Assembly (NCBI GenBank): GCA_963834815.1
Contig: CAWIDA010000009.1
Coordinates: forward strand, 414,863-478,862
DNA from: an uncultured Acidobacteriaceae bacterium
Lineage (GTDB): Bacteria; Acidobacteriota; Terriglobia; Terriglobales; Acidobacteriaceae
Direction of reading: 5' to 3'
Length of the DNA stretch: 64,000 nucleotides
The stretch's first letter is position 1, and the number at the start of each line of letters is the position of its first letter. The notes below the pieces were generated by a model. That model was not told the DNA's origin. It did no database searches and saw only the letters and a program-made list of their open reading frames with translations. A program made the translations under genes and the position numbers. Shown here in pieces: positions 1 to 33,524 of this stretch.

Positions 1-300
1 CGCCCGATCAAACGACAATCGGCCACCAACTTGTCATCCTGCGGATGGAAGAGCGCCTGGATGGTTAGCGTCCTGGGCTCGTTGCGATAGAACTTGAACG
101 GCGCCAGGAAGTTCACCTCTTCAATCGACTCGACATGCCAACCGGGGTGGACACAGACGGCGGCTTCTGCGAACGCCTCAATCCCCATCACTCCGGGCAA
201 CACCGGCGTGCCGTCGATACGGTGGTCATAGAGGAACGGTTGAGCGGCGGGGTCGAGCGTTGTCTCCATGGTCAGGCCACGACTGAGACTCATGCCGGTT
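1..300 (-). other. Dehydratase (hot-dog, PKS-type) domain, N-terminal part only
   Basis: PFLYDHRIDGTPVLPGVMGIEAF matches the HxxxGxxxxP motif (His codon 224-222). The domain continues past coordinate 1. Confidence 0.8.
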
Positions 301-3300
301 AGCTTGCCGACCATAGGGCCTTGCGCTGCTAGCTTTTCGCTGGTGGTTGCCAGTGCGGCAGTATCCAGGCCGCCGGTCGCATCCCACTCGGCTAGCATGA
401 CTCCAAGGCGGCCGGCCACCACAACTTCACCTCGCGTACCACCAGCCGTGAGTTCGCGGCGAATCCATGGAACGCCGGCCTCGGGCGGCAACATGTCGAT
501 GCCTGCTAACTCCATCATCTTGGGGATGGATCCGCGGGTCGCCATGCCGATCCCGCCCCATGCTGTCCAGTCGATGACTATGCCCCGGGTACCCGGACGT
601 GTCGTGCGGAAGCTCGACGTGATCTTGCACAGCAGATCGTTGGCGGCACTGTAGTCCGACTGTCCTGCATTGCCGAAACGACCCGCGACTGAACTGAACG
701 CCACGGTCGCACCCAGCGGCATGTCTCCAATGGCATGCAGAAGGTTGAACCAACCGTCACTCTTGACGTCGAATACCAGATCGAATTCGCGCTGGTCCTT
801 ATCGGGCAAGAAGTGGCTGCGCTCCAGACCGGCAGCGTGCAGCAGCACGTCGATGCGTCCGCTTTGCCGGCGCACCTGCTCGATGACGTTGGCTACTCCG
901 GCAGCGTCGGTGAGATTGACGCTGACGTAGCGGGCAATTCCTCCGGCGGCTTGCACAGCATCGATCGCACTCTGAGCGGCTTGAGCGCGCTCCAGCGCCG
1001 CTAGCTCCTTCTCGACCAGAGCCGGCGTGGCACGTTCGCCGCGGGCCTGGATACGAGCGAAGAGATCGCGCTTGAGTCCGTCTTTGTCGCTGACGAAGCG
1101 AGCCAGGTCGGGATTGTTGGGATCAGGACTTGGCACGACATCAAGCAGGTAGAACGTGCCGCCGGATGCCGCAGCTAAATCAGAGGTGATCGCCGACACG
1201 ATACTTCCTGCCGCTCCGGTGATCACGAAGACGCTGTTCTCGTCCAGAATAAGGCCAGACTCGCCGTCGGCTACCGACTGCTCTTGCAATCCCACTGTCC
1301 AACGCAGTCCATTCTTATAGCCAATTTCGACCGCGCCCTGATCGCGTCGTGTCTCTTCGACAAGGAGGCCAGCGATTTCCGCCGGATCACGTTGAGCTTC
1401 GAAGTCAACCACTTTGACCAGGGCGTCGGCCCGCTCACGCTTGAACGTCTTGGTGAAGCCGGCAACTGCTCCGCCCAGTGGCGCGACCGCTCCGGCGAGG
1501 TCGTAGCCGTGTTGTCCACCCAGTCGCGTGGCCGTAACGAGGAACGTACTCGAAGCTGCAATTTGCTGGAAGAGAGAACGCATTACGACGTAGAGCGACT
1601 TGACGCGCACACGCAGCGCTTCGCGCCACGCGGGCAGGTCCATCCTGCCGATGTCACCCTCGTGGTCGAGAGCGGCCAGCCAGTAGACGCCCTGCACGGA
1701 ACCGGCAGTTGCCCACTTGTTGAGCAGGTCTGTCAGCACTCCCGCATCGCGGGTGTCGTCGAGCACCAGGACTTCCACTCCCAGGTTACGCAGACTTTGG
1801 GTTAATACCTTCGCGACGCCACCTTCGTCAGGCATTACCACGACGCGGCTGCCAGGGCCAAGCGTGACGCCCGTTGGCTTGCAGATACTGAGCGGCGGAC
1901 GCAGGTTGGGCAGCGGCACGCGACGTGGAACGCGATCGGCTGCATCGAAGCCGGCCAGTACAGGCCGGATCCGAGGCGGCCGCGCTGGAGTTGAGGCGGG
2001 CTGGGCCATCCGGACAGACGGTGGCGCCGCAATGCCGGTGGGTATAGCCGATGCTGCTGGAGTTGCCGTAACGACCTGTTTATCGATCGCGAATTGGATG
2101 ACGTGCGCCAGGGTTGGAAAATCACGCAACTTGAGGTTCTCTTCGCGAGGAATGTTGTAAGCCGCCCGCACCGCAGCGAACATCTCCGCCTGCTTGACCG
2201 TGTCGATGCCAAGGTCGGCCTCCAGATCAAGGTCGAGGTCCAGCATCTCCGGGGGATATCCGGTCTTCTCAGCCACGATCTCGAGTACCTTTTCCTTGAT
2301 TGCGTCGTAGTTGGCGGTTGACGCCGCCACCGTGGTTGCTGCGGTCTCGGCCGCTTCGGCGACGGGGGTGGCCAAGGATGTCGGGGTAGGCGCCGCGCCG
2401 CTCAAATCCGGGCGACTCTCATACACGAACCGAATCACGTGTGCCAGAGTTGGGTAGTCACGCAGCTTGCGGTTTTCATCCCGCGGGATGTTGTAAATCT
2501 CGCGGATGGCGGCGAACATCTCCGCCTGCTTGACGGTATCGACGCCGAGATCAGCTTCGAGGTCAAGATCCAAGTCCAGCATGTCTGTGGGATAGCCAGT
2601 CTTTTCCACCGCCAGGTCAAGAATGCGTTCCTTGACCGCGTCGGTCCCGGCGGCAGGCTGAGCGGCCGGAACCAGTGCAGTCGACGCACTCAACTCTGCC
2701 GTTGCGCTTGGCATGGTTGGAGCGGCAACCTCGACGGGTTGCGGCGCTGGCGACTCGTCTTGCGCAAGATCGGGACGGCTTTCATACACGAAACGGATCA
2801 CGTGTGACAGAGTGGGGTAGTCACGCAGCTTGCGGTTTTCGTCGCGCGGGATGTTGTAGATTTCGCGGATAGCGGCAAACATCTCCGCTTGCTTGACCGT
2901 ATCGACGCCTAGATCGGCCTCAAGGTCCAGGTCCAAGTCCAGCATGTCTCTCGGGTAGCCTGTCTTCTCCACCGCCAAGTCGAGAATGCGTTCCTTGACC
3001 GAGTCGGTCCCGGCAACAGGCGGGGCCGTCGGAGCCGGTCCAACTGGAGTTACTTCTGCGACAGCCGCAGGCTTGGAGGTGGCGGCCCCTTCTACGGTTT
3101 GCGGCATGGGTACGGGTTGCGGCGCAGGGGACTTGCCCCGCGCAAGATCCGGACGGCTCTCGTACACGAAGCGAATCACGTGTGCCAGAGTCGGATAGTC
3201 GCGCAGCTTGCGGCTTTCGTCGCGCGGGATGTTGTAAATCTCGCGGATGGCAGCGAACATCTCTGCCTGCTTGACGGTGTCGACCCCGAGGTCTGCTTCG

Positions 3301-6300
3301 AGGTCCAGATCCAGGTCCAGCATGTCTCTGGGATAGCCAGTTTTCTCCACTGCCAGATCGAGAATGCGTTCTTTCACCGCGTCACCAGCGGCCGACGATG
3401 CAGAAATCGTCTCGGGTACCAGCGAGGTGAGTTTGGTGTTTTCCGGTGGCTTGGTTACCGCCACGATTGGCGGCGCTGCGACGGCAGTGTCTGTATTTGG
3501 CCGGCGCTCATTCACAAAGCGAATCACATGGGCGAGCGTGGGGTAATCGCGCAGTTTGATCTGATCGTCACGCGCAATACCGTAGGCTTCGCGGATCGTG
3601 GCGAAGACCTCTGCCTGCTTGACGGTATCGACGCCCAAGTCGGCTTCGAGGTCGAGATCGAGATCGAGCATGTCGATGGGGTAGCCGGTTTTATCGGCCA
3701 CCAGCGCCAGCACCCGATCTTTCACTGATTCGGTAGAAGAGTTTGGTTTGGGCGGCGTGGCCGGTGCAACCGGCGCGGCCGCAACCACCTGAACTTGTGG
3801 TTCAACTTTCACCTGCTCTGCCTTCGGCTGCGGTGGCGCCGGCTTTACCGCGACGACTGCTGGCTTCGACGGGGGCGGCGGCGCCTGTACTGTTTGAGTC
3901 GGCGGCGGAATCGGTTTGACATCCTTCGCTGCCCCAGCAGCAACTCCGGCAACGCGGGCGGATAGGCCTTGATCACGCACGCGCAGGGTACGATTGACGA
4001 CTTCGAGATCCGCATCTGGACGGCCCGCTATTCTGGTCAGCCATGCGTCCCATGCCGGCTGATCGGCGACGCGGTAGGCATATCCTAGAGCATCCGGTCG
4101 GCGGCGAACTCCGTCCTTGGTTGGGATCCGACGCATCAGCGCCATGCTGATCTGTGAGCCAAAGCCCGCACCCAGTCGTAAGGCGTACTCGACGGGATAG
4201 TCGCCACCCTTTGCCAGATTCAACGAACCCAGTTCCGGATCGACTTCCTTGAAGTTGGGCACAGGAGGAACCACTCCCGTTTCCAGCACTTTCACCGCCA
4301 CCACTTCCTCGATACCAGTGGCCATGGCGTGGCCGGTGAAACCCTTGGTGTTGGCGATCACGATTTGGTCGGCAGTGTTGCCGAATACGCGACGCAGCGC
4401 GTTGATCTCCGCCGATGCGCTTCCGCCTCGAGCCGGCGTGTAGGTTTCATGGGAAACGAAGACGGTGTGTGGCGCGATCTGATGACGATCAATGCCGCTA
4501 TGCGCTTCGGCTTGCGCGATCAACGTCTCCATCACCTGGCCGATGTGCTGCACATCGAGGCGAGTGCCATGGAATGCACTGTTGGCAGTCACCGCGCCGA
4601 GCACTTCACAGATGGGCTGGATTCCACGCTCACGCGCGGCTTCGGCACTCTCAACAACGAGAGCCGCCGCACCCATACCGATGATCAAGCCGTGCCGCCG
4701 ACGATCGAAGGGAGTAGCGACCTCTTCGACTGCTGCATCAGTGGCGGCTGTTCCGCTGGCCAGGAAGCCCGCGCCAAACCATCCGATCAGGTGATCGGAA
4801 GTGACATCATCGGCCGTGATGATGATGACCCGGCTGCAGCGTCCGGCGCGGATCCAGTCCTGCGCCAGGCTGACGGCATGACTAGTGGTTGAGCAGGCGG
4901 AGTTGATTTGTGTGTTGGGACCGCGAGCGCCGATGAACTCGGCGAATTGCGAGTGCCCCATCGAGAGAGTCTTGAGCAGGAAGCGGCGGTCGAAGATATA
5001 GGGGTTCTTCTCAATCTCCGCGCGCAGTTCTTCGATCTTTCGGATTATCTCCTGGGCGAGGGGCGAATGGCCGTTGGTCCCTGCCACCGCTGCGACCATT
5101 TCCTCTAAGGAGGCTAGTTGCTGGCGACGGGCGTGGTCGGCATAGTACCGAGCCATCTCATCGGCGTACGCGTCGTAACCGGGAAAGGCCGAGCCAAAAA
5201 TTACGCCGGTATCGTCGCGCAGAGCATCCGGAAGCCCCCAGCGGTCGGGCAGCTGCGTGCCCTTGCTGGTGGTCTTGTAACGCATGACCAAGGGAATTCC
5301 CGCGTCGCGCATCGCTTCAATGCCGACTCCGATGGCAAGGCGAGTGACCTGATCGAGAGCGGCCACGCGCTCGGCGGAGACGCCGAATTCCTTTACCAAA
5401 TCGAAGGCGCCACCGCGACCCGCCAGCTTGATGACATCGGCAACGTCTTCAATGGTGTCGAATCTCGCCTCTCCGCTTTCACTCTTGACCAAACGCGTGA
5501 TGCGTTTGTCGAGCATGTCACGACGAAACTGGGAAGGGATGGGTTTGATGAACTGATCGCCCCGCAGAATTCGAGCGATATTGCCATCATCGAAGATGTG
5601 GTCGGTGCCCGGCAGGCCCATGGCTGCGCCAGTGATCGCCACAGGTTCGCCGGCAGATGGACTCTTCTGTCCGTGATAGATGTCCCAGCCGCGTTCCAGA
5701 ACGTCAGCGAAGAAGCGACCGAGTTCGGAATAGCGGTCGCCACTTGATGGAACGGTAAGTGCCACGCCAGGTGCCGGCGCTGCCGCTGCGACCAGCGCGG
5801 GAGTTTTCACCGCTGGATGAGCTGCTGCCGTGGCCACAACCTCAGGTGCGGGAACGCTGCTTGCCGGCGTTGCCGGCCTCGTCTCCTGCTGGATTGCGGC
5901 TGCATCCTTCTCGCATCCGAATCCCGCGGCATACAGCCCGCACAGCGCCTGGTTGAATGCCGCCAGGTCGTTGAGCTTGGGATGATTGGTGAACAGCGAA
6001 ATCACATCACCGCGCTCGCCCAGCACCTCCTCGGCAAACCCCTGCAACGCTTTCTTGGGTCCGACTTCCACAAATACGCGGGCGCCGGCATCGTAGAGCG
6101 ACTGCAAGCCTTTCACGAACTGCACCGGAGCCGCGACCTGCTGCGCGAGCAGATCGAGCATCTGGGGAACGACGTTCGGTCCGGTTGGATAGAACTCGCC
6201 ATTCACGTTCGCGACAACCGGCACCTGTGGTGGTTGAATCTGGAGGTGCGACAGCATCTCTCGCAACGGGGCGCTGGCGGGGGCGACAATCGAGGTATGA

Positions 6301-8759
6301 AAGGCGTGGCTCACCGGCAACGGGACTACGTTGAAGCCATTCTGCAGGAATATTTCTATGGCCTGTTCGACTGCCTTGCTGGCTCCGCCGATGACCGATT
6401 GCTGCCCGCTATTGATGTTGGCGATCACAACGTAATCGTTAATCGTCTTTAGGACTCGTTCGACTTCAGCCAGCGGCGCAAAGACGGCGGCCATTTTGCC
6501 GGTGTCTTTCACCGCCACCTTGGTCATGCCGCGACCACGAGCGCTTACGGCCTGCAGGGCGTTCTCGAAGGTGAGAGAGCCTGCGGCAACCAGGGCGCCG
6601 TATTCGCCTAGGCTGTGCCCCATCGTCATGTCAGGCTTTATGCCGTAGGCAGCCAACAACCTTGTGATCGCCAGGTCGATAGTCAACACGGTCGGCTGAG
6701 TGATCTCGGTCTGGCGCAGATCTTCCTCCGCTTTGGCGACTGCTTCGGCGTCCGACGGGTCAACAAAGATGAACTGGCTAAGTGGCTTGCCCAGCAGTGG
6801 GGTCATGATCCGGTCGGCTTCCACAAAAAGATCGGCCACGATGGGCTCTGCGGCGCGAAGCGGCTCGGTCATGTTGACGTACTGCGAGCCTTGGCCGGTG
6901 TAAAGGAACGCGACCTTGGGTGCGGGACCGTGTCCGCGAAAGATACCCTGCGCGCGCAATGCCTTCCAGATCGGAGCCTGGTTGGCCTGCAATGCCTTGA
7001 GCGCCGCGGCCGATTTAGTGGCTAGCTCAGCAGCATCGGCATAGTCGATCGCCACCCGTTCGGGTGCGCGCAGATCGCTCTCGGCGGGAGCAGTCGGCGC
7101 CGGCGCGCTGCCTGCCGCAGCCGCCTTCTGGACCGCGCTCAGTCGTGCGGCCAAATCACTTTCGGTGGCAGCACCAATCACCAGGGCGCCACGTAAAGGA
7201 GCCTTGCGAGTAGACTCGCCGGAGATCGTGGGGGAAATACTGCTTGCATGCATCGTCACATCCTTCACAACATTCTTCTCAACACCGGGCGGTATTGCAG
7301 GCACTGCGATGGAGCGCTTGCCGTTCCCGTTCAGCCTTCCGGGTATGTGCTCTTCCATCACTAAGTGGAAGTTGGTGCCGCCGAAACCAAACGCGCTGAC
7401 ACCAGCGCGACGTACGCCGCCGGCGGGAATTTCCCAAGGCTTCAGTGCGGTGTTGACGTACAGGGGAGAGTGAGCGAAATCGATCTCAGGACTGGGGTGC
7501 TCGCAGTGGAGACTGGGCGGCAACACCTTGTCGCGGAGCGCGAAGGCAGCTTTGAGGATTCCTGCGGCGCCGGCGGCCCCTTTGAGATGTCCGATATTCG
7601 ACTTCACTGACCCGAGCGCCACGGACCTGACGGGTAGATTCGCGCTGCTCAACATACCGGCCATGCTCTGTGCTTCGACCACGTCGCCTACGCGGGTCGA
7701 GGTGCCGTGACCTTCAATCAGCATCGCGGGCACGGGCGAAACGCCGGCATTTTGCCAGGCGCGCTCGACGCAGAACTTCTGCCCAATGGGATTCGGCGCT
7801 GTGATCCCCTTGCCTTTGCCGTCACTCGATCCGCCGATACCGCGCACCACGGCGTAAATTTTGTCCTGGTCGCGTTCCGCATCGGCCAGACGCTTCATCA
7901 GGAAGATGGCGGCACCTTCGCCCATAACGAAGCCATCGGCGCCCTCAGCGTAGGGACGAGTGCCAGTCGCCGACAGCGCACCGATCTTGCAAAACTTCAC
8001 GAAAGTCGGCGCGCCCATGTTGCGGTCGATGCCTCCGGTGACAACGACGTCGAAATCGTTCTCGATGAGACCTTCGACAGCCGACTTGATCGCAGCCATC
8101 GCCGACGCACAAGCCGCGTCGCAGATGTAATTAGGGCCGTGAAAGTTATAGAGGTTAGCGATGCGGCCAGCCATGCAGTTGGCCAGTTCACCAGGCATCG
8201 AATCTTCGGTGATGGGAGCAATTCGCTTGCCCATGCGTTCGTGGAACTGCCTGGTTATCTCCTCGCGTAGCGACTCGGGCAACGCCGCGAAGCCGGGTGA
8301 TTCTGCGAGTTCGTGTGCATATTCGGGAAAGAACACGCGCAAAGATGTCAGGTAATGCTTCTCTCCCGCCATGGCGTTACCGAGAATCACCGCCGTGCGA
8401 TCCAGTTCGAGTGGCCGTTGGGGATAGCCGTAATCTTCCAGCGCCTCGCGCGTGCAGGCGATAGCCCACTGCTGCGCGGGGTCCATGGCATCCGCGACCC
8501 GCGGCGGTATCGGCAACTTCCATTTCATCGGGTCCCAGGCAAACTCGCGTACCCATCCGCCGATCTTCGAATAAGTTTTGTCGGGCGCGTTGGGATCGGC
8601 ATCGTAGTAAAGTGCTGGGTCCCAGCGTTCAGCCGGAACCTCAGCGATGCTGTAGCGTCCAGCCTTCACGTTTTCCCAAAATGCAGGCGCGTTCGGAGAA
8701 TCGGGCAGGATGGCTCCCACCCCCACAATGGCAATGGCTCGATGTGCGGTGTTTTCCAT
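1..8759 (-). CDS. Type I polyketide / PUFA-synthase-like megasynthase (KS-AT-KS-5x carrier-KR-DH). The N-terminus is in the window and the C-terminal end runs off the left edge (>=2919 aa visible).
   Basis: My own translation of the minus strand from ATG (8759-8757) gives MENTAHRAIAIVGVGAILPDSPNAPAFWENV... All diagnostic motifs (KS1 Cys 8111-8109, AT Ser 6614-6612, KS2 Cys 4895-4893, KR Tyr 653-651, DH His 224-222) are in one frame, with codon high coordinate = 2 mod 3. The ORF track has no minus-strand entry in that frame between 1 and 8759, as expected for an ORF with no stop inside the window. AAGGAAA lies about 8 nt upstream of the ATG. Confidence 0.92.
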   Translation of the reverse strand, partial: MENTAHRAIAIVGVGAILPDSPNAPAFWENVKAGRYSIAEVPAERWDPALYYDADPNAPDKTYSKIGGWVREFAWDPMKWKLPIPPRVADAMDPAQQWAIACTREALEDYGYPQRPLELDRTAVILGNAMAGEKHYLTSLRVFFPEYAHELAESPGFAALPESLREEITRQFHERMGKRIAPITEDSMPGELANCMAGRIANLYNFHGPNYICDAACASAMAAIKSAVEGLIENDFDVVVTGGIDRNMGAPTFVKFCKIGALSATGTRPYAEGADGFVMGEGAAIFLMKRLADAERDQDKIYAVVRGIGGSSDGKGKGITAPNPIGQKFCVERAWQNAGVSPVPAMLIEGHGTSTRVGDVVEAQSMAGMLSSANLPVRSVALGSVKSNIGHLKGAAGAAGILKAAFALRDKVLPPSLHCEHPSPEIDFAHSPLYVNTALKPWEIPAGGVRRAGVSAFGFGGTNFHLVMEEHIPGRLNGNGKRSIAVPAIPPGVEKNVVKDVTMHASSISPTISGESTRKAPLRGALVIGAATESDLAARLSAVQKAAAAGSAPAPTAPAESDLRAPERVAIDYADAAELATKSAAALKALQANQAPIWKALRAQGIFRGHGPAPKVAFLYTGQGSQYVNMTEPLRAAEPIVADLFVEADRIMTPLLGKPLSQFIFVDPSDAEAVAKAEEDLRQTEITQPTVLTIDLAITRLLAAYGIKPDMTMGHSLGEYGALVAAGSLTFENALQAVSARGRGMTKVAVKDTGKMAAVFAPLAEVERVLKTINDYVVIANINSGQQSVIGGASKAVEQAIEIFLQNGFNVVPLPVSHAFHTSIVAPASAPLREMLSHLQIQPPQVPVVANVNGEFYPTGPNVVPQMLDLLAQQVAAPVQFVKGLQSLYDAGARVFVEVGPKKALQGFAEEVLGERGDVISLFTNHPKLNDLAAFNQALCGLYAAGFGCEKDAAAIQQETRPATPASSVPAPEVVATAAAHPAVKTPALVAAAAPAPGVALTVPSSGDRYSELGRFFADVLERGWDIYHGQKSPSAGEPVAITGAAMGLPGTDHIFDDGNIARILRGDQFIKPIPSQFRRDMLDKRITRLVKSESGEARFDTIEDVADVIKLAGRGGAFDLVKEFGVSAERVAALDQVTRLAIGVGIEAMRDAGIPLVMRYKTTSKGTQLPDRWGLPDALRDDTGVIFGSAFPGYDAYADEMARYYADHARRQQLASLEEMVAAVAGTNGHSPLAQEIIRKIEELRAEIEKNPYIFDRRFLLKTLSMGHSQFAEFIGARGPNTQINSACSTTSHAVSLAQDWIRAGRCSRVIIITADDVTSDHLIGWFGAGFLASGTAATDAAVEEVATPFDRRRHGLIIGMGAAALVVESAEAARERGIQPICEVLGAVTANSAFHGTRLDVQHIGQVMETLIAQAEAHSGIDRHQIAPHTVFVSHETYTPARGGSASAEINALRRVFGNTADQIVIANTKGFTGHAMATGIEEVVAVKVLETGVVPPVPNFKEVDPELGSLNLAKGGDYPVEYALRLGAGFGSQISMALMRRIPTKDGVRRRPDALGYAYRVADQPAWDAWLTRIAGRPDADLEVVNRTLRVRDQGLSARVAGVAAGAAKDVKPIPPPTQTVQAPPPPSKPAVVAVKPAPPQPKAEQVKVEPQVQVVAAAPVAPATPPKPNSSTESVKDRVLALVADKTGYPIDMLDLDLDLEADLGVDTVKQAEVFATIREAYGIARDDQIKLRDYPTLAHVIRFVNERRPNTDTAVAAPPIVAVTKPPENTKLTSLVPETISASSAAGDAVKERILDLAVEKTGYPRDMLDLDLDLEADLGVDTVKQAEMFAAIREIYNIPRDESRKLRDYPTLAHVIRFVYESRPDLARGKSPAPQPVPMPQTVEGAATSKPAAVAEVTPVGPAPTAPPVAGTDSVKERILDLAVEKTGYPRDMLDLDLDLEADLGVDTVKQAEMFAAIREIYNIPRDENRKLRDYPTLSHVIRFVYESRPDLAQDESPAPQPVEVAAPTMPSATAELSASTALVPAAQPAAGTDAVKERILDLAVEKTGYPTDMLDLDLDLEADLGVDTVKQAEMFAAIREIYNIPRDENRKLRDYPTLAHVIRFVYESRPDLSGAAPTPTSLATPVAEAAETAATTVAASTANYDAIKEKVLEIVAEKTGYPPEMLDLDLDLEADLGIDTVKQAEMFAAVRAAYNIPREENLKLRDFPTLAHVIQFAIDKQVVTATPAASAIPTGIAAPPSVRMAQPASTPARPPRIRPVLAGFDAADRVPRRVPLPNLRPPLSICKPTGVTLGPGSRVVVMPDEGGVAKVLTQSLRNLGVEVLVLDDTRDAGVLTDLLNKWATAGSVQGVYWLAALDHEGDIGRMDLPAWREALRVRVKSLYVVMRSLFQQIAASSTFLVTATRLGGQHGYDLAGAVAPLGGAVAGFTKTFKRERADALVKVVDFEAQRDPAEIAGLLVEETRRDQGAVEIGYKNGLRWTVGLQEQSVADGESGLILDENSVFVITGAAGSIVSAITSDLAAASGGTFYLLDVVPSPDPNNPDLARFVSDKDGLKRDLFARIQARGERATPALVEKELAALERAQAAQSAIDAVQAAGGIARYVSVNLTDAAGVANVIEQVRRQSGRIDVLLHAAGLERSHFLPDKDQREFDLVFDVKSDGWFNLLHAIGDMPLGATVAFSSVAGRFGNAGQSDYSAANDLLCKITSSFRTTRPGTRGIVIDWTAWGGIGMATRGSIPKMMELAGIDMLPPEAGVPWIRRELTAGGTRGEVVVAGRLGVMLAEWDATGGLDTAALATTSEKLAAQGPMVGKLTGMSLSRGLTMETTLDPAAQPFLYDHRIDGTPVLPGVMGIEAFAEAAVCVHPGWHVESIEEVNFLAPFKFYRNEPRTLTIQALFHPQDDKLVADCRLIG
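415..1880 (-). other. Ketoreductase domain (structural plus catalytic SDR subdomains)
   Basis: Rossmann motif SVFVITGAAGSIVSAI (about 1200-1245) and catalytic GQSDYSAANDLL (Tyr codon 653-651). Confidence 0.85.
2075..3735 (-). repeat. Five tandem acyl-carrier-like domains (about 75 aa each) separated by Ala/Pro-rich linkers. Repeat period is about 336-380 nt.
   Basis: Each unit reads ..KTGYPxxMLDLDLDLEADLG(V/I)DTVKQAE(M/V)FAA(I/V)R..Y.I.R......LRD(Y/F)PTL(A/S)HVI.F. Approximate units are 3508-3735, 3155-3385, 2778-3006, 2416-2644 and 2075-2310. Units 2-4 look roughly 85-90% identical at the nucleotide level by eye. Confidence 0.9.
4125..5655 (-). other. Second ketosynthase-type domain (divergent; active-site context resembles FAS-I). 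The Cys-His-His triad is present, so it is not a CLF.
   Basis: GPNTQINSACSTTSHAVSLA (Cys at aa 1289), VFVSHETYTPARGG, IANTKGFTGHAMATG and C-terminal LRLGAGFGSQISMAL. A long helical insert (YADHARRQQLASLEEMV...IRKIEELRAEIEKNPYIFDRRFLLKTL) precedes the Cys. The comparison to FAS-I-type KS is by eye and from memory only. Confidence 0.75.
6040..6925 (-). other. Acyltransferase domain (malonyl-type motifs)
   Basis: KVAFLYTGQGSQY, GHSLGEYGAL (Ser at aa 716, codon 6614-6612) and VSHAFHTS (an HAFH-type motif, usually malonyl-specific). Confidence 0.88.
7350..8745 (-). other. Ketosynthase domain 1 (canonical PKS/FabF-like, Cys-His-His)
   Basis: Motifs ICDAACASAMAAI (Cys at aa 217), IEGHGTSTRVGD and VKSNIGHLKGAAG. 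The domain ends at VSAFGFGGTNFHLVMEE. Confidence 0.9.
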
Positions 8760-8829: not shown

Positions 8830-10527
8830 CTAGCTATGAACAGGTACTTCCGTGAGCTGTTCCGCTTGACGTTTTTGAGCGCGGCCATACAAAACGTCGG
8901 CGACGTAATCGAGATCGGCAACCAGACCGGACTGAGCGCGGTGGATTGCCGGGAATCGCAGGGACTCCTCAAACTGCGGAACCTCTGCGTCGGTCACTCC
9001 GCCCGCGCCGACAACGCAGCGCAATCCGTCTTGCGCCACCTTCATCGCCGCCTCGCGCGCGAAGATACGGCTAATAGCTGCCAATGCGGCCGCGTCAAAG
9101 CGATCGTTGCCTTTCTCATTGAGCCGGCCTTCGGCGGAGAGTGCGGCGCGTCGAGCAAGCGTCGCAGCCGATTCGGCATAGGCGATCCACTCGCCGATGC
9201 GCAACAAAATGTGCTGGTAGCGGGTTAGCCGTCCCGCGCGGGCCTTTTCCATGATCTCTGCGAGAGCGTGCAGGGCCAGAGCCGCGACATCAGCTCCAAC
9301 GTTCGGATGGGCCGCGTGCAACAATTCCACCTGCTTCGCGCGCTCGTGATAGTGCTGTCCGCGCGTCTTCAGGTGGAGCTGCCAGCGGTCGCGGCTGATG
9401 GTCATCTCCATGATCTCGGAGGTGCCTTCGTAGATCGTGGTGATGCGCACGTCACGCTTGATCTTCTCCACCATGTACTCGTGCGTGTAGCCGTAACCGC
9501 CCAGCGCCTGGATGCTGGCTTCAGCGGCGGCATTTCCCGCCTCGGTAGACATGTACTTGGCAATCGCGCCTTCAGTGTTAAGACTTCCTTCGCCCGCATC
9601 GATGCGCTCGGCCGTTTCCTCGATAAAGGCGCGGCCCGCTTCCAGCCGGACGACGTTCGGCACGATCAGCTTGTGGGTGTAGCCTTGCTTCTCCGACAGT
9701 GGAGTTCCAGCCTGGATGCGCTTCGTGGAATACGGAATCGCACGGTCCAGCGCTGACCAGCCAGCGCCGAGCCCGAACGCGGCGACCATCAGTCGCGTGT
9801 ATCCGAACACGGCCTGGGCTTGCAGCAGCCCTTGTCCTTCCACGCCGCCTATCAGCCGGTCGGCATCGACATACGTGTCAACCAGCGACAGGGCGGCCGT
9901 ATTGCTCAGACGGATGCCGTGTTTGTTCTCCGGCTTATCGTGAGTGAAGCCTTTCGCGCCCCTCTCCACCACGAACCAACTCGGCCCGCTCGGCGTATTC
10001 GCCAGTACCGTATACAGGTCGGCAATGCCACCGTTGCTGATCCATTGCTTGCTGCCGTTGATCTTGTAGCCGACTACCTGGCCGTCCTGCAGGACGCGGT
10101 CCGCGGTGGTCTTGAGCGAGCCCAGGTCGCTGCCCGCTTCCGGCTCGGTAGCGCCGTAGGCAAACAGCACGCCTTCGTTTGCAATGCGGCTCAGCCACAA
10201 CTTCTTTTGCTCGGGGGTAGCGCCGACCGTGATCGGATCGCTGCCAAGAAAGGTGGCGAACAAAGACGTAGCGAGGCCGAGATCGATGCGGGCCATCTCT
10301 TCGCAGACGAGGTAGACGTCGAAGGTGCTTCCGCCCAGGCCGCCGTACTCCTCGGGAATGAACAGCAGTTGAATGCCGAGCTGGTCGGGGTTGCACATGT
10401 AGTGCACGATCTCCTCCGGACACTCGTCGCGCTCGTCGAGTTCGATCAGTACTTCGTCCGGCAGCCGTTTCTTGCCGAAGTCCCGCAGCGACTTCAAGCT
10501 AAGCTTTAAGGTTTTCTTGGTTATCAT
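8830..10527 (-). CDS. Acyl-CoA dehydrogenase family protein, long form with a C-terminal extension of about 170 aa
   Basis: ORF-track translation carries ACAD motifs ([27 protein letters not shown] with a catalytic Glu context). I prefer ATG 10527 (MITKKTL...) because GAGG lies about 8 nt upstream and this start does not overlap etfA. The track start at 10575 would overlap etfA by 32 nt. Confidence 0.9.
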
Positions 10528-10543
10528 TGCCAATGCCTCACTT

Positions 10544-11533
10544 TTATCGGGTCGCGTGCGCGCCCTTCGCTTCACGAACTTTGCTGGTCAATTCAGGGAT
10601 AAACTCCAGTATGTCGGCGACGATGCCCACATCCGCTACCTGAAAGATTGGCGCCTTGGGGTTCTTGTTGATGGCGACGATGAACGGACTGCCTTTGAGT
10701 CCAGCGAGATGCTGGAACGATCCGCTGATGCCGCACGCCAGGTAGATCTTCGGCTTCACCGTCTGGCCCGACGACCCAACCTGCCGCGACTTGGGCAGCC
10801 ACTTGGCATCGACCACCGGGCGCGAACAGCTCACGGCCGCGCCTAGGGCGTCAGCCAATTCCTGGGCAATCGAAACATTGTCTTGTTCCTGTATGCCGCG
10901 ACCGACGGAAACAAGGACCGGTTCCTTGGTGATGTCCACATCGCCGACTTCGGCCACGACCGTCTCCAGATAGCGTCGACCCGCTGTCAGCGCTCCGACG
11001 TCTGCCGACTTATCAACAACCACGCCATTCGCCGTCGCGGTCTCTATGGGCTTGAACGCTCCGGGACGCAGGTTGATCACCGCGCCAGCGGAAAGATCGC
11101 AGCGGACATGCGTACTCATCTGTCCGCCGAATTCCTGACGGACGACTTTGAGGAAATTTCCCTCGACCCCGTCGATGCCCATCACGTCCGAGACAAACGC
11201 AGCTCCAAGTTTCACCGACAGCCCAGGCCCCAGATCGATTCCAAAATGGTTGTGCACAACCAGTACGACGCTACCCGCTGGAACGATCTTCACCAGCGCT
11301 TTGCGAACCAGCTCGGCATTGGGATAGGCGAGACTGTCGCTCGCGATCTTCCACACCTCGGCGTAGGAGCCGCGCAGGCTGTCGCAGACCGCGTCGAGTT
11401 CGGCACCCGAGCCGGTGACAACCGCCGTCGGAGCCGCTGCGGGATCAATTTTTTTTGCCGCGGCCAACAGTTCGGCGGCGGAATCGTCAGCGACACCCTT
11501 GTGCGCGATGTAGGCAAAAATCCGGGCCGTCAT
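10544..11533 (-). CDS. etfA: Electron transfer flavoprotein subunit alpha
   Basis: The 329-aa product is typical EtfA (C-terminal FAD-binding region ...[37 protein letters not shown]). AAGGAGG lies 7 nt upstream. The ATG overlaps the etfB stop (ATGA, 11530-11533). Confidence 0.93.
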
Positions 11534-12321
11534 TGCATACCTCCTTTGGCTTTCATCAGCTCAATGAGCTTGTCGGCGATCTCTTCGTTGCTGCCCTGCA
11601 GAATCTCTGCGCCCTTGCCCAAGGCCGGCACAAAGTAGTCGTCGCGCTTCACCTTTGCGGCCGCTTCTCCGACGGAGCTTTTGTCGACGCCGAGATCGGC
11701 TGCTCCGTAGGTGGGAACTTCCAGTGACGCTGCCTGGCGGATGCCGCGCATCCCGACATAGCGCGGTTCGTTGATGCCGGTCTGGATTGAGAGCACGCAG
11801 GGGAGATCGATCTCGTTCATCTCCTTGTTGCCGCCTTCGATCTCGCGCCCGACCTTCAGCTTCTTGCCGTCGGCGACCTCGATGGAGTTCACCAGCGAGG
11901 CGAAGGGATAGTCGAGCATCGCAGCCAGCATCCCGCCTACCTGCGCGCCGCCATCTTCCGCCTGCACGCCGGTGAGGATCAGGTCGTAATTCCCTATCTG
12001 CACCAAGCCCTTCAGAATGGTTGCGATCCCTTTTCCGTCCGATCCGCTGAACACATCGTCAGAGAGCAGCACGCCATGATTCGCGCCCATGGCCAGTTCC
12101 CGCCGCAGGATTTCCTCGTCCTCTTCTGTGCCCACGGTGGCAACTGTGACGTTGCCGCCTGACTTGGCGACGATCTGCAGCGCTTCTTCGACCGCGTAGT
12201 TGTCCGGTTCATTGATCGAATACACGAGATCGTCGCGTTCAATATCGTTCCCCGCACCGTTGAGCTGAATCTCGTTCTCCGAGGTGTCGGGCACCCTTCT
12301 TGCGCAAACTAGAATCTCCAC
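11530..12321 (-). CDS. etfB: Electron transfer flavoprotein subunit beta
   Basis: The 263-aa product (MEILVCARRVPDTSENEIQL...) is typical EtfB. It has a GTG start with GGAG about 9 nt upstream. Confidence 0.92.
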   Translation of the reverse strand: MEILVCARRVPDTSENEIQLNGAGNDIERDDLVYSINEPDNYAVEEALQIVAKSGGNVTVATVGTEEDEEILRRELAMGANHGVLLSDDVFSGSDGKGIATILKGLVQIGNYDLILTGVQAEDGGAQVGGMLAAMLDYPFASLVNSIEVADGKKLKVGREIEGGNKEMNEIDLPCVLSIQTGINEPRYVGMRGIRQAASLEVPTYGAADLGVDKSSVGEAAAKVKRDDYFVPALGKGAEILQGSNEEIADKLIELMKAKGGMQ

Positions 12322-12396
12322 GTTTTCACTCCCCGAATCAGTTTTTGTGCCATCTCGAACTGCGGTACCTCACTCTGTCCATCCGCCGCCGCAGCA

Positions 12397-14517
12397 TCAC
12401 GCATGTGCTTCAGTCAATAACTCATCCTTACTGGGCATCTCCTGCGAAGTCTCACGCACCAGGTGCTGGTCCACTAGTTCCGTCAAGTCGATCGCAGTCA
12501 TCTTCCCTTCCATCCCCGAGACCTTGATCGCGTCTTCGATATTCACCATGCAGAATGGGCAGGCGGTCACGATCACATTGGCTCCGGCATCAGCGGCCAT
12601 CTGGACCCGCTTCACTCCCATCCTTTGTTCTTCTTTTGGCTCGTAGAACAGCATCAGCCCGCCACCACCGCAGCAGAACGATCGGTCGCGGCACTTGCTC
12701 ATCTCCACTCGCTGCAAGCCCGGAATGGCATCGAGCACATCACGCGGATCGTCATAAACCTGGTTGTGGCGTCCCAGATAGCAGGGGTCGTGATAGGCAT
12801 AAACGTTGTTGCTGTTCTCGACGTGATTGAGCTTGAGCTTCCCTGTCTTCACGTCGCGCGCGATCAACTGGCTGATGTGCTCCACCGGAGGCAGATCTTT
12901 GTAGTCGTGCTTCAGGGCGTTGAAGGCGTGGGGGTCGGAGGTTACGATGCGCTGTACCCCGGACGATTTGATGGCATCGATGTTGTGGTCGCGCAGCGCC
13001 ATGAAGAGCATCTCTTCGCCGAAGCGCCGGACTTCGTGGCCACTGTCTTTTTCCGCCGCGCCGAGGATTCCGTAGTTCTCGCCGGCATCGCTCAGGATTC
13101 GCGCCGTTGCCCGCCCAATCGCCTGAATACGGTCGTCATAGGAGGTGATGCTGTCGACGAAATACAAGGTCTCAGCTGCATCTTTTCCATCCAGAACTTT
13201 GACACTGCACGATTGCTGGAAGTCTTTTTCCTTGGCCCAGTCGGCTTTCTTCTTCTCCATCTTGCCGTAGGGATTGCCGCGGCTTTCGAGCGCCTTGAGC
13301 GCCTTCTGGATGGACTTCGGTACGTTTCCGTCGTCGACCATGCCACGCCGTAAATCGACGATCTTGTCGATGTACTCGATCAGCAGGGGGCACTCTTCCT
13401 CGCATGCGCCACAGGTGGTGCAGGACCAGATTTCATCCTCGTCGTAAATGCCGCCGATCAACGCATGGCTGTTGTTGGCGCCGCCAAACACGGGGAAGTG
13501 TTGGAAGCTGTAATCGCGCGCCTTGATCGTGATGAACCTGGGCGACAAAGGCCGCCCTACTGCGTTAGCCGGGCACTGATCGGAGCACCGTCCGCAGTCG
13601 GCGCAGGAATAGAAATCGAGCATGTGCTTCCAGGTAAAGTCCTCAAACTTTTTCACGCCGAACGATTTCACCTGGTCGAGACGATCGTCGCTGACGTCCC
13701 ACCGAACCGGTTTAACGGTGCCCTTGTCCAATTTCGCGAAGTACACACCGAAGAGCGAGGTCTCGACATGGAACTGGATTCCGAAGGGCCGATAGCACAG
13801 CAGGAAGTAAAAGGTCAGCGCCTGCGCAAGATAAGAGACGAGGTAGAGATTCCAAACGATCTGCGGGTTGGCAGAAATCAACGCCCGGTTCAACAACCAC
13901 GGCAGTGAGAACACGGCCAGGGACTCGACGGCATGGCCTTGCTGCGCCAGAAACGCAGTCTTGCTGGCTTCGAATACGCTCTCGGCAAACATCAGGACCG
14001 CGATGAGCGCCAACAGGAAGATGGCGTCGGCGGTATGGGCTTTGCCATAGCTGGACGGCACGGCATAGCGAGCTGGTTGGAAGATCAAACGGCGTGCAGC
14101 CGCGAAGATCATGCACAGGAAAACCACGGTGGCCGCGTAGTTCGTGATCAGGTCATACGCCCGCCTCACGCCCGAGGAGTTGACCACCATTGCGTTGGTT
14201 GAGGTGCCTAGACCGAGCAGGGCGAACGTGTGGATCGCCAGAATGATGAATCCGGTAAAAAACAGAATGTGCACGATGCCCGCCGTGCGATAGCGTGGAT
14301 GTTTCCACTGTCCAAACCAATATTGGAGGACGCGTTCCAGTCGGACCATCGGCCGATCAAAGCGAAAGTCGGGTGCGGCCTTAAGAAGCGGCATCAGCCG
14401 TCTTGCGACGATATAGGCAAAGCATGCCAGACCCAGAACATGTAGGAAAAGGAACAGAACTCGGCCTGAAACCAACCAGTAAGTCGCTTGCGACGGGGAC
14501 GGGATTGATTCCAACAT
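12397..14517 (-). CDS. Membrane-bound Fe-S oxidoreductase: an N-terminal polytopic (NarI/DsrM-like) domain fused to a 2x[4Fe-4S] plus 2x CCG (HdrD/GlpC/DsrK-like) domain. Candidate ETF:quinone oxidoreductase of the syntroph type.
   Basis: The first ~290 aa contain several hydrophobic helices. These are followed by CADCGRCSDQCP, CTTCGACEEECP, HDPCYLGRH, SFCCGGGG and TACPFCMVN. The start is ambiguous between ATG 14517 and TTG 14571. Confidence 0.85.
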   Translation of the reverse strand: MLESIPSPSQATYWLVSGRVLFLFLHVLGLACFAYIVARRLMPLLKAAPDFRFDRPMVRLERVLQYWFGQWKHPRYRTAGIVHILFFTGFIILAIHTFALLGLGTSTNAMVVNSSGVRRAYDLITNYAATVVFLCMIFAAARRLIFQPARYAVPSSYGKAHTADAIFLLALIAVLMFAESVFEASKTAFLAQQGHAVESLAVFSLPWLLNRALISANPQIVWNLYLVSYLAQALTFYFLLCYRPFGIQFHVETSLFGVYFAKLDKGTVKPVRWDVSDDRLDQVKSFGVKKFEDFTWKHMLDFYSCADCGRCSDQCPANAVGRPLSPRFITIKARDYSFQHFPVFGGANNSHALIGGIYDEDEIWSCTTCGACEEECPLLIEYIDKIVDLRRGMVDDGNVPKSIQKALKALESRGNPYGKMEKKKADWAKEKDFQQSCSVKVLDGKDAAETLYFVDSITSYDDRIQAIGRATARILSDAGENYGILGAAEKDSGHEVRRFGEEMLFMALRDHNIDAIKSSGVQRIVTSDPHAFNALKHDYKDLPPVEHISQLIARDVKTGKLKLNHVENSNNVYAYHDPCYLGRHNQVYDDPRDVLDAIPGLQRVEMSKCRDRSFCCGGGGLMLFYEPKEEQRMGVKRVQMAADAGANVIVTACPFCMVNIEDAIKVSGMEGKMTAIDLTELVDQHLVRETSQEMPSKDELLTEAHA

Positions 14518-15130
14518 GACTCTCGGAATCTCCAAGTTGTGCCTACGCAGATTGGGTGCGCAGGATTGCAAAGTTCAGGGCTGCTTGCTGTCGTGTTCGT
14601 CCCATCCACCGAAGCGAATGGTCTCGGCAAGAGCCCGCCTGGACGAGCGATACCTGGTGGCAATTACATGGAGATTCCACTCGCATCTCGCCGGTACAGG
14701 ACGAGGAACGTGAAGCTGAATGCCGGTTGCCTACCGGGGATATGCACTGCCTCTACACTCGGCAGCACCCAGTGGGTGCCGTCGCGATTCCTACTAGACG
14801 TGGCGCCTGGGAGGCCGGGTGGAATCGTGCCCGACTGACTGTTTCAGATTATGTTCTGCCGCGGGCGGGCGGTCTGTGAGACCCATCACACGTTAGTAGT
14901 ACGGGGCGCACTCCACGTTCGTAGCAGCATCACGTACCGGCTGGTAATGCCAGACAGTTGCAAGTAATGGAAACTGTCTAACCTATGCAGATGCTCTTGG
15001 CTCGCTACATTGGAGGGTTGCGGATGAGGTTGATAAAGCGGGTTCAAACCGAACCGAACATCACGCCAAACAGCGCCAGGAGAGCGTTCCGGGGAAACCG
15101 CGGTTAGTCTTGAGTAAACGTGGATGCGGT

Positions 15131-15517: not shown

Positions 15518-15895
15518 GACTTCAACTCCTGCGAAGCTGCCTTTGCGACCCCCGCGGCAACTCTGTCTTTGATTATTACATCCGGCCTAATCATCCGAGG
15601 ATGTGACGAGCCGCACTGAGGTTGGTGATGGCTGCGACTAGGCCGCGAGCGTCTTGCCGTTCCCTTCTGCGTCGCCGATGAGTCTGCCGGCGGTAGCTCC
15701 CATTGTCACCACCACGACGGAAATAACATCGGGATTGTGACGCCTCTCACAGCACAGGTTGTCAAATCATGGGATTTTAGTATCGTCGGCCGGGCCGAGA
15801 TAGGCGTTGATCCGTTGCCCGCGGATTGGCTCTTTTCATGGATGCTCCATATCGAGCAGGCACAGCCGTCGGTCAGGCAAAGCAGGGGGAACGCC

Positions 15896-17557
15896 ATGTC
15901 GCAAGCTAGCCGGGTTGATTCACTTTCGTGGGGAGACACGTTCTTCCTGTTCATCGAGCGTGAGGGACAGCCACTGAACATCGCCTCCACTTGCGAGTTC
16001 GAGGGCGTAATTTCGCTGCAAGCGTTCAGAAAGTTTGTTGAGTCGAAGCTGGGCCTGATCCCGCGATACAAACAACGTGCGGTATTTCCGGCCTTCAACA
16101 TCAGTCTTCCAACCTGGGAGTTCGACCCGAACTTTGACATACGAAATCATGTTAATCAGGTCGTTCTCAAGGGTGGAACGGACAGCGATCTTAAAGAAAT
16201 CGCTGCCAGGATCATCAGCGAGCCACTGGACCGGCGTCGGCCGCTGTGGGACCTCACCCTGGTACGCGGTCTTAAGGGAAATCGAACAGGCTTGGTGTTC
16301 CGCATCCATCACTGCATGGCAGATGGGATATCCGGCGTCGGAATCATGAACGTCCTGTTGGACACGAGCCCGACTCCGCAAAAGCTGGCGGCGAAAAAGT
16401 CGGGCTCGGAAGAGCCGCGGCCGACCGACTCAGTTGCCTTGCTCCTCGATCAAGTGCTCCAGTCGTACCAGGCGTTCATGCAAGGGGCTGTAACGGCGCA
16501 AGCCGAAGTGGTGAATATCGTACGGGAGCTGCTCGCAGGCGCCACCAACGGCCACACGGACGACATTATTCATTTGGTGCCGGAACTTGGTACGCCCTCA
16601 CAGCGCCTGCCCTTCAACAAGGTATGCCGTGGTCCGCAAAGGATTGCGTGGGGCGAAATGCGAATGGCAGAAATTAAGGCCATTCGCGAGAGTTGCGGGG
16701 GCACGGTGAACGACGTGGTGCTCACCGTCATCACCTCGACGATTCGGCGCTACGCAGAATTGCACGGCGTGAAGGTCAGAGGACGGCATTTGAGGATTAT
16801 CGTTCCAGTAAACCTCCGCGGTAACGGCGACATCGGCGAATTGGGAAACCGCATTACGTTCTTGCCGATTAATGTGCCGCTCGACGTCCGCGACTCCCGT
16901 GCACTGCTAGCGCGAGTCAGTGAACGCATGGTCTTTCTCAGGAGCGTCGGAGTAGCGGACCTGGTCGGTCTGGTGGGTACACTGGTGTCGAAGATTCCGC
17001 TTCCCGCCCAAGCGGTCCTGGCACCATTGGCCACCCAGTTGCCGCTTAGCCTAAGCAACATGATCTGCACCAATGTTCCCGGCCCGCAGCTCCCGCTGTA
17101 CCTCCTCGGACATAAGATGTTGCGCTGCTACCCGTATGTCCCAATCGGCGGCGAGATGGGGGTGAATGTCGCGATTCTCAGTTATGACGGCGTCGCCTAC
17201 GTTGGGTTCGGGGGTGATATTCACGCCGTGCCCGATATCGATTGCCTTGAAGACCTCCTTCGCTCAAGCTTCACGGATTTACGGGAAGCCGCAACCGAAA
17301 AATCTGCCCCGACCAGCCGTGCTGCTGCCAGGTCAAAAGTCGAGGCTGCCACGCGGCGGGTGAAACTGCGGACGATCGCGATTTCGCCAGCAGCAAAGCC
17401 AGCGCGGAAGAAAGTACAGGCTGCCGAACCGGCGTCAAAGCAACCAACGCGTCAGACCTTGGCGACGAAACCGGCGGATCTCGTCCTACCAAAAATTAAG
17501 TCGGTTCCCGCAGCCGTGACCGTCCCGGAAACGGTGCTGTCGCAAGCGGGCGACTGA
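15896..17557 (+). CDS. Wax ester synthase / diacylglycerol acyltransferase (WS/DGAT) family protein with a basic Ala/Lys/Pro-rich C-terminal tail of about 95 aa
   Basis: Catalytic motif HHCMADGISG (HHxxxDG). I prefer ATG 15896 (AGGGGGA 5 nt upstream, MSQASRVDSLSWGDTFFL...) over the track GTG at 15737. The tail is ...SRAAARSKVEAATRRVKLRT..AAKPARKKVQAAEPASKQP... Confidence 0.88.
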   Translation: MSQASRVDSLSWGDTFFLFIEREGQPLNIASTCEFEGVISLQAFRKFVESKLGLIPRYKQRAVFPAFNISLPTWEFDPNFDIRNHVNQVVLKGGTDSDLKEIAARIISEPLDRRRPLWDLTLVRGLKGNRTGLVFRIHHCMADGISGVGIMNVLLDTSPTPQKLAAKKSGSEEPRPTDSVALLLDQVLQSYQAFMQGAVTAQAEVVNIVRELLAGATNGHTDDIIHLVPELGTPSQRLPFNKVCRGPQRIAWGEMRMAEIKAIRESCGGTVNDVVLTVITSTIRRYAELHGVKVRGRHLRIIVPVNLRGNGDIGELGNRITFLPINVPLDVRDSRALLARVSERMVFLRSVGVADLVGLVGTLVSKIPLPAQAVLAPLATQLPLSLSNMICTNVPGPQLPLYLLGHKMLRCYPYVPIGGEMGVNVAILSYDGVAYVGFGGDIHAVPDIDCLEDLLRSSFTDLREAATEKSAPTSRAAARSKVEAATRRVKLRTIAISPAAKPARKKVQAAEPASKQPTRQTLATKPADLVLPKIKSVPAAVTVPETVLSQAGD

Positions 17558-19747: not shown

Positions 19748-19810
19748 TCCTGGGAATTGAGAAGTCGGCGTTTCTCCGGCTGCGAGGTGAGGACGGGGTT
19801 GAGCGACATT

Positions 19811-19850
19811 GGTCGTTCCGTTGCGTTGGCAGCGGAACGACCCATTTCTT
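19811..19850 (+). terminator. Candidate intrinsic terminator after the repeat-protein gene
   Basis: 10-bp stem GGTCGTTCCG (19811-19820) / CGGAACGACC (19833-19842) with a 12-nt loop, followed by the T-rich CATTTCTTCC. Confidence 0.45.
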
Positions 19851-19895
19851 CCGCTTGCCACTTACCGAGGCGCGCATGTACGAGAGGAAGAAGAA

Positions 19896-30748: not shown

Positions 30749-33524
<2,776 letters not shown>

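Follow-up and report, generated by a model that had tools for sequence, protein, structure and literature searches.

Threonine at the phosphopantetheine attachment site of tandem acyl carrier domains in a PfaA-like megasynthase of Acidobacteriota

To our knowledge, all known acyl carrier domains possess the serine that bears the phosphopantetheine arm, and this residue is regarded as invariant in fatty acid synthases (FASs), polyketide synthases (PKSs) and non-ribosomal peptide synthetases. Phosphopantetheinyl transferases (PPTases) are known as serine-specific enzymes that modify the hydroxyl of this residue, which is also built into PROSITE-type patterns, annotation rules and the tools that call carrier domains active. 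A 64,000-nucleotide stretch of DNA from an uncultured Acidobacteriaceae bacterium (contig CAWIDA010000009.1, positions 414,863 to 478,862; hereafter the window) encodes a PfaA-like megasynthase with five tandem acyl carrier protein (ACP) domains, each of which has a threonine where this serine is expected. The locus thus raises the question of whether these domains are genuine carriers and, if so, what their threonine bears. A preliminary description, based on the letters of the window, had offered three meanings, namely threonine-linked phosphopantetheinylation by a dedicated PPTase, attachment of a different prosthetic group, or carrier-like domains with a non-covalent role.

The five threonine codons are located in a single open frame on the minus strand, which begins with an ATG at position 8759, runs past the window start and encodes at least 2919 amino acids. 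The gene (1..8759, minus strand, 3' end outside the window) was assigned from its open frame, its Pfam matches and its score against the NCBIfam PfaA model TIGR02813, which it passes with 1047.9 bits against a cut-off of 1010.1. According to Pfam, the encoded domain order is ketosynthase (KS), acyltransferase (AT), a second ketosynthase (KS2), five ACPs, ketoreductase (KR) and dehydratase (DH), i.e., KS-AT-KS2-5×ACP-KR-DH.

As the preliminary description had claimed, threonine is present at the attachment site of all five modules, i.e., module 1 (3489..3725, minus strand; codon ACC at 3626-3624), module 2 (3141..3377, minus strand; ACC at 3278-3276), module 3 (2763..2999, minus strand; ACG at 2900-2898), module 4 (2400..2636, minus strand; ACC at 2537-2535) and module 5 (2064..2300, minus strand; ACG at 2201-2199). 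Module 1 was assigned from its PF00550 match and from phmmer matches to solved carriers, module 2 from its sequence and from an AlphaFold2 model compared by Foldseek, and modules 3, 4 and 5 from sequence. Each threonine sits inside the motif LEADLG(V/I)DTVKQAE; the variation (E/D)AD that had been given for this motif was not recovered, as all five copies read E-A-D.

The placement of this threonine in the serine column of carrier alignments, also proposed earlier, is borne out by three approaches that concur. The synthase matches the Pfam phosphopantetheine-binding family PF00550 in five stretches with 101.6 bits against a cut-off of 20.8, while the invariant serine of the family signature (D/H)-S-(L/I) is replaced by threonine in every copy in the window. 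Using phmmer against solved carriers, the threonine falls opposite the attachment serine, for example that of LGVD-S-I in PigH (5y08) and of AD-S-L in 2lol and 4dxe. A MAFFT alignment with serine-type PfaA ACPs likewise places it in the serine column, within a shared context that reads TGYPxxMLxxDxDLExDLGID-[S/T]-[I/V]-K. The AlphaFold2 model of module 2 (pLDDT 82.7) exhibits a helical ACP bundle with helices at residues 2-13, 34-47, 64-74 and 76-82, in which helix II is predicted to begin at T34, the attachment threonine, and the best Foldseek matches of this model are ACPs (TM scores of 0.75-0.87, rmsd of 1.2-1.7 Å). The earlier statement that no serine is conserved elsewhere in the modules also holds, since modules 1 and 5 have no serine and no cysteine anywhere in their 79-residue cores, and an alternative acceptor is thus absent there. 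We take the five repeats to be true acyl carrier domains that belong to an iterative PfaA-like synthase ('Type R') making a lipid or a polyketide.

The threonine has been conserved and does not stem from one error passed on among the copies, in agreement with what had been suggested for the window. The further remark that the five copies have otherwise diverged is correct for their DNA, which is 64-87% identical among the copies, and for copies 1 and 5, but not for copies 2-4 as proteins. Modules 2-4 (window 2400-3377) share 96-97% of their protein sequence and 85-87% of their DNA, and are separated by 25-34 synonymous as opposed to 2-3 non-synonymous codon differences, a pattern which rules out recent copying of an error and which fits strong purifying selection on repeats between which gene conversion is rare or absent. 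The window was further compared with 81 related loci, and the carrier and synteny counts given here are drawn from these 82 sequences. Threonine was found in 328 of 328 ACP copies, encoded by all four threonine codons (ACC 173, ACG 106, ACT 29 and ACA 20). The residue is under purifying selection: the motif E-A-D-L-G-x-D-T-V-K-Q-A is invariant in the carrier alignment (A1), and no part of the carrier domain is more strongly conserved than the attachment motif, while the number of ACP copies per synthase varies from 3 to 7 across the related loci.

To define the spread of such carriers, several searches were combined. A word-indexed homologue search returned 120 fragments, all of which contain DT(V)KQAE, while an exhaustive phmmer search over 1.84 billion representatives yielded 5836 matches, of which the best 150 were typed for serine or threonine. 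Threonine carriers are present in 122 of these 150 representatives, one of which (P0188) also has a serine carrier; the rest are of the serine type, reading DSIKRVEI as in canonical PfaA, DSIKKAQL or similar. The residue that follows the acceptor covaries with it, the counts in the same 150 representatives being 402 for TV, 9 for TI, 145 for SI and 0 for SV, and the lone SV case (L146) came from a metagenome scan. Threonine carriers accompany the architecture KS1-AT-KS2-ACPn-KR-DH, and serine carriers in the best 150 representatives accompany KS-AT-ACPn-KR or KS-KS-AT-ACPn-KR.

A scan with one genome per species returned at least 391 loci, the best 80 of which belong almost entirely to Acidobacteriota (Acidobacteriaceae, Bryobacteraceae, Korobacteraceae, Sulfotelmatobacter and Acidoferrales); outside this phylum, the best 80 include single metagenome-assembled genomes (MAGs) labelled delta proteobacterium and Dormiibacterota. 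The locus nearest to the window is ~81% identical in nucleotides, and the window synthase shares 76% protein identity with that of locus L003, while KS identities within the threonine clade reach down to about 36-45%. In a neighbour-joining tree of KS1, the threonine proteins form one clade, beside canonical PfaA. As a separate observation, one threonine-type synthase with four DTVKQVE carriers (P0175, 3514 residues, NCBI MGA1872031.1) is filed under a Thermoplasmatota archaeon MAG, a label due to horizontal transfer into Archaea or else to faulty binning. Discrete threonine-ACP genes of 87-147 residues (P0001-P0120, and in L001 and L002) were at one point considered, but represent the megasynthase split by frameshifts in long-read assemblies; hundreds of deposited short 'acyl carrier proteins' are such fragments, which matters for counts of stand-alone ACPs.

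Serine-type and mixed relatives were sought in metagenomes using a degenerate DNA pattern (WSN) that accepts serine and threonine codons alike. A marine clade with the same architecture as the threonine type, KS1-AT-KS2-ACP2-KR-DH, has serine-only carriers (GELGIDSIKQAEIM; DSIKQAE), and represents a natural serine-type comparator to the threonine synthases. It comprises 34 loci within L086-L148, mostly on marine/TARA contigs, whose domains are 42-50% identical to those of the window; genes for an electron transfer flavoprotein (ETF) and an acyl-CoA dehydrogenase (ACAD) lie close by on the other strand, and the DH is followed by a PPTase open reading frame (ORF) of highly divergent sequence. 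An apparent correlation between threonine carriers and PPTases, based on tblastn searches that found no PPTase beside the serine-only relatives, was dropped when a profile search detected that divergent frame.

In the synthases of three further loci (L082, L096 and L123), a single Ser-Ile carrier is found alongside two or three Thr-Val carriers. In L082, an orthologous PPTase gene, whose product is 47% identical to that of L009, is located immediately downstream, while the L123 synthase is a 3370-residue ORF with the order KS1-AT-ACP(S)-KS2-ACP(T)-ACP(T)-KR-DH-PPTase, its serine-type ACP being placed between AT and KS2. By sequence comparison, serine and threonine interchange within one protein family and even within one polypeptide. 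Furthermore, four metagenome contigs (L108, L110, L115 and L132) possess one uninterrupted ORF that encodes KR and DH together with threonine-only ACPs and ends in a PPTase domain; the carriers of these fusions read DTVKQAE or DTIKQAE, and the PPTase motifs GIDLE and WTxKEAxSKAxGEG are intact.

In the related loci, the synthase is part of a conserved block with the order Fe-S/CCG oxidoreductase, ETFβ, ETFα, ACAD, synthase, single-chain acetyl-CoA carboxylase (ACC) and PF01648 PPTase, the upstream half of which is present in the window at 8830-14571, while the downstream half lies outside coordinate 1. A PF01648 PPTase gene is located downstream of the synthase in 69 of the 81 related loci, the remaining loci ending too early. 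The encoded protein is ~250 residues long (PF01648, E 7.8e-16), and its motifs WxLGRWTAK, GAP, ISxSH, GCDLE and WSxKESxLKAL are near-invariant, GCDLE (of the Mg-binding form G-x-D-x-E) and WSxKESxLKAL (of the form W/F-x-x-K-E-x-x-x-K) being invariant in 33 orthologues. Its best NCBIfam match is HetI, with 53.9 bits well under the cut-off of 370. Searched against the PDB, its profile matches structures of AcpS, Sfp and EntD as well as the PPTase domains at the C-termini of fungal FAS alpha. Within the 64-kb window, neither a PPTase nor a carrier outside the megasynthase was detected, though the gene block continues beyond the window start. All six frames of the window and of the 81 loci with their surroundings (±10 kb) were searched with a combined serine and threonine profile, which recovered the 328 threonine carriers but no serine carrier, so that the threonine domains are the sole local substrates for the PPTase.

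Of the three meanings initially offered, this sequence evidence favours threonine-linked phosphopantetheinylation by a dedicated PPTase: the phosphopantetheine arm is probably carried by the threonine hydroxyl, where it would be placed by the co-encoded HetI/Sfp-type PPTase. Threonine carriers that are fused or adjacent to a PPTase, the interchange of serine and threonine, and the covariation between TV and SI are best explained in this manner. On balance, O-(4'-phosphopantetheinyl)-threonine would also seem to be a natural modification of the widespread PfaA-like clade as a whole, which extends over hundreds of Acidobacteriota species and into other lineages, installed by a clade-specific HetI/Sfp-like PPTase that takes threonine and, in the mixed proteins, serine too. 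The PPTase at the end of the cluster would transfer 4'-phosphopantetheine from coenzyme A (CoA) to the threonine with which helix II begins, and the pantetheine thiol would next receive malonyl units from the AT. Any of the 3-7 parallel carriers could then hold the chain while KS1/KS2, KR and DH extend it, in the manner of polyunsaturated fatty acid (PUFA) synthases. More speculatively, the change from Ser-Ile to Thr-Val could sterically offset the extra methyl group in the pocket of the PPTase or of a partner domain.

Both the acceptance of threonine by the PPTase and the activity of the domains as carriers are what we infer from the gene sequences, and several points weigh against them. The presence of the PPTase in the organism represented by the window is deduced from the gene order of relatives that are about 76-81% identical to it. 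Serine-only relatives also adjoin PPTases, and adjacency alone is therefore no proof of threonine specificity, while the PPTase of the mixed proteins could serve the serine carrier only. A comparison of the PPTase catalytic motifs between threonine, serine and mixed clusters revealed no clear specificity determinant, and no report of O-phosphopantetheinyl-threonine or of the DTVKQ/DTV motif was found in the literature searched. Finally, the S36T variant of Escherichia coli ACP is said to have been found by Keating, Carey and Cronan in 1995 not to be modified by AcpS, which indicates that known PPTases discriminate against threonine.

That description of known PPTases as serine-specific also lends some weight to the first of the other explanations, namely that the threonine domains are carrier-shaped but never pantetheinylated, serving as spacers, docking platforms or non-covalent binders while the chain resides on a serine ACP elsewhere or travels as a CoA thioester. 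The lone serine carrier in L082, L096 and L123, which could be the only active one in these synthases, points in the same direction. However, most members, including that of the window, lack a serine carrier both in the protein itself and in the surrounding ±10 kb, and a peak of conservation at the attachment motif is what an active site, unlike a spacer, typically shows. The carrier number of 3 to 7 is that of PUFA synthases, whose copies are each thought to be functional. Furthermore, the clusters keep a dedicated PPTase, which four contigs encode in fusion with threonine-only carriers; as a PPTase without a substrate is not expected to persist, its retention speaks against unmodified carriers, and we regard this explanation as unlikely.

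A second explanation holds that the threonine bears another group, which could be an acyl chain in direct O-ester linkage or a group of the dephospho-CoA type known from the ACPs of citrate lyase and malonate decarboxylase. It is chemically conceivable, as threonine is nucleophilic enough to form esters and phosphodiesters. It is nevertheless very improbable, given that the conserved neighbour is a PF01648 PPTase and not a transferase of the CitX/MdcG type, a gene of which was not seen in the conserved block ETFβ-ETFα-ACAD-synthase-ACC-PPTase, that a chain esterified to helix II would lack a swinging arm toward KS, KR and DH, and that an oxo-ester is, by established enzymology, a poor substrate for Claisen condensation. 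The last explanation, that the threonine is an artefact of sequencing or assembly, belongs to a pseudogene or is a mutation spread through the repeats, might be suspected because many database relatives derive from error-prone long-read assemblies with the gene in fragments, but is refuted by the comparative data and retains a negligible probability, with a frame in the window that is open across 2919 codons, threonine in every carrier copy of 82 independent assemblies (Illumina MAGs among them) through four codons, high synonymous divergence between copies, and a clade whose KS domains differ as widely as stated above.

The domains that surround the carriers bear out the earlier description of an otherwise intact megasynthase. 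In residues, the Pfam matches cover KS 8-474, AT 619-913, a second KS-like region at about 1000-1600, five phosphopantetheine-binding stretches from 1682 to about 2250, KR 2589-2736 and the N-terminal half of a PKS dehydratase at 2816-2903. KS1 (7341..8741, minus strand; PF00109, PF02801 and PF16197) exhibits the Cys/His/His motifs DAACAS, EGHGTST and NIGHLK, and the AT (6024..6908, minus strand; PF00698, E 2e-39) has the malonyl-type motifs GHSLGE and HAFH, of which GHSxGE is kept in 29 of 29 full-length relatives. KS2 (3960..5762, minus strand), recognized from stretches of PF00109 and a weak PF08545 match, contains SACS, SHETYT and KGFTGH; its active-site cysteine is residue 1289 (codon 4895-4893, minus strand) and is retained in 45 of 45 threonine-type relatives, while the histidine motifs SHETYT and KG(F/Y)TGH are present in 27-28 of 29. 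On the basis of these motifs, KS2 looks like a second active ketosynthase rather than a Gln-type chain-length factor (CLF). The Pfam-matched part of the KR (555..998, minus strand; PF08659 and PF00106) carries the motif YSAAN, and the N-terminal half of the PKS-type dehydratase (54..317, minus strand; PF21089), the remainder of which lies outside the window, carries HRIDGTPVLP, conforming to HxxxGxxxxP. The synthases of relatives go on with PS-DH and end at 2959-3065 residues. Motif and BLAST-column checks indicate that the catalytic domains are intact in the window synthase and throughout the clade, and an enzyme whose catalytic domains are all intact needs a carrier.

The gene family to which this synthase belongs was catalogued in 2011, while its threonine acceptor site is, as far as the literature searched, unreported. 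Shulse & Allen 2011 (PMC3098273) described a 'Type R' secondary lipid synthase in which a pfaA homologue has the order KS-MAT-CLF-ACP(3-6)-KR (MAT, malonyl acyltransferase) and is followed downstream by a PPTase gene; it occurs in Koribacter versatilis, Solibacter usitatus, Elusimicrobium minutum and Roseiflexus, with an ACC gene before the PPTase gene in Koribacter. Its product is uncharacterised (PMC3098273), and the words 'threonine' and 'serine' do not occur in that paper. Apart from Shulse & Allen 2011, the literature searched yielded nothing of relevance on the function of Type R clusters. The window synthase shares the layout KS-MAT-CLF(KS2)-ACP(3-6)-KR, with five ACPs and a subsequent DH, and its relatives have the order synthase, ACC and PPTase that is identical to that of Koribacter, the likeness being drawn from architecture and gene order. 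The second KS was termed a chain-length factor in Type R, whereas the clade analyzed here invariably retains its cysteine.

Compared to the canonical PfaA of Shewanella, Photobacterium and Moritella, both types of synthase possess tandem, nearly identical ACPs between KS-AT and KR/DH, with ~35-42% domain identity and the motif TGYPxxMLxxDxDLExDLGID-x-x-K in common. The canonical carriers, however, read LGIDSIKRVEI, with serine followed by isoleucine where the present ones have threonine followed by valine, and KS2 between AT and the ACPs is found here only. Canonical PUFA synthases require an Sfp-type PPTase (PfaE). The partners PfaB, PfaC and PfaD of the canonical cluster (pfaABCDE) are not found nearby, their place being taken by ACAD, ETFαβ, the Fe-S oxidoreductase and ACC. 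The tandem ACPs of PUFA synthases are among the subjects discussed in PMC3585217.

The heterocyst glycolipid synthase HglE with its PPTase HetI offers a second parallel, as both systems are PfaA-like and iterative with tandem ACPs and a dedicated PPTase. The carriers of HglE are of the serine type, and the same is true of the ACP of fungal FAS. Fungal type I FAS alpha resembles the fusions in L108, L110, L115, L123 and L132 in that a C-terminal PPTase is fused in cis to the ACP-bearing synthase, whereas in the close relatives of the window synthase the PPTase is encoded by a gene of its own. The S36T variant of E. coli ACP, reportedly locked in the apo form, represents the same change at the attachment site, but was engineered, while the threonine of the present carriers is naturally selected in a large clade with its own PPTase.

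If the modification were confirmed, it would add a new acceptor residue to PPTase chemistry and provide a natural enzyme/substrate pair for orthogonal carrier labelling, and the synthase may then be orthogonal to the housekeeping AcpS and to ACP hydrolases. Genome mining would miscall the threonine synthases, which are abundant in soil bacteria, as inactive. The cluster also offers a way into an uncharacterised lipid pathway (synthase, dedicated ACC and ACAD/ETF) that is very common in Terriglobia, which count among the dominant phyla of soil.

The neighbouring genes of the block are all encoded on the minus strand. Directly upstream of the synthase lies a gene of the acyl-CoA dehydrogenase family (8830..10575, Pfam), found in 75 of the 82 sequences, followed by the genes for ETF alpha (10544-11533) and ETF beta (11530-12321), both assigned by Pfam and each present in 66 of the 82, and by that for an Fe-S/CCG-domain oxidoreductase (12397..14571; PF02754 and Fer4 families), the first gene of the block, which is also present in L001. 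The best NCBIfam match of the ACAD orthologue in L009 is, at a score under the cut-off, the acryloyl-CoA reductase AcrC, and the carrier-dependent ACADs PigA, MbtN and RedW are also among the matches. The synthase has KR and DH but no enoyl reductase domain, and enoyl reduction might come in trans from the ACAD/ETF block. In 66 loci, the synthase and PPTase genes are separated by that of a single-chain, eukaryote-like ACC of ~1885-1890 residues (biotin carboxylase-biotin carboxyl carrier protein-ACC_central-carboxyltransferase), which presumably feeds malonyl-CoA to the pathway; in L010, L029, L045 and L081, among others, the ACC is absent and the PPTase gene directly follows that of the synthase.

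Elsewhere in the window are three other lipid-related genes, of which the two near the cluster encode a wax-ester/diacylglycerol acyltransferase of the WS/DGAT family (15737-17557, plus strand) and a patatin-like phospholipase (19809-21152, plus strand). Farther from the cluster lie the third, for a family-21 glycosyltransferase of the ceramide glucosyltransferase family (29423-30595, minus strand), and, at 30749-32995 on the minus strand, a gene for a KatG-type catalase-peroxidase with two peroxidase domains. The rest of the window comprises ordinary acidobacterial genes, including those for glycoside hydrolases (GH2 and GH5), TPR proteins and a TonB-type outer-membrane protein.

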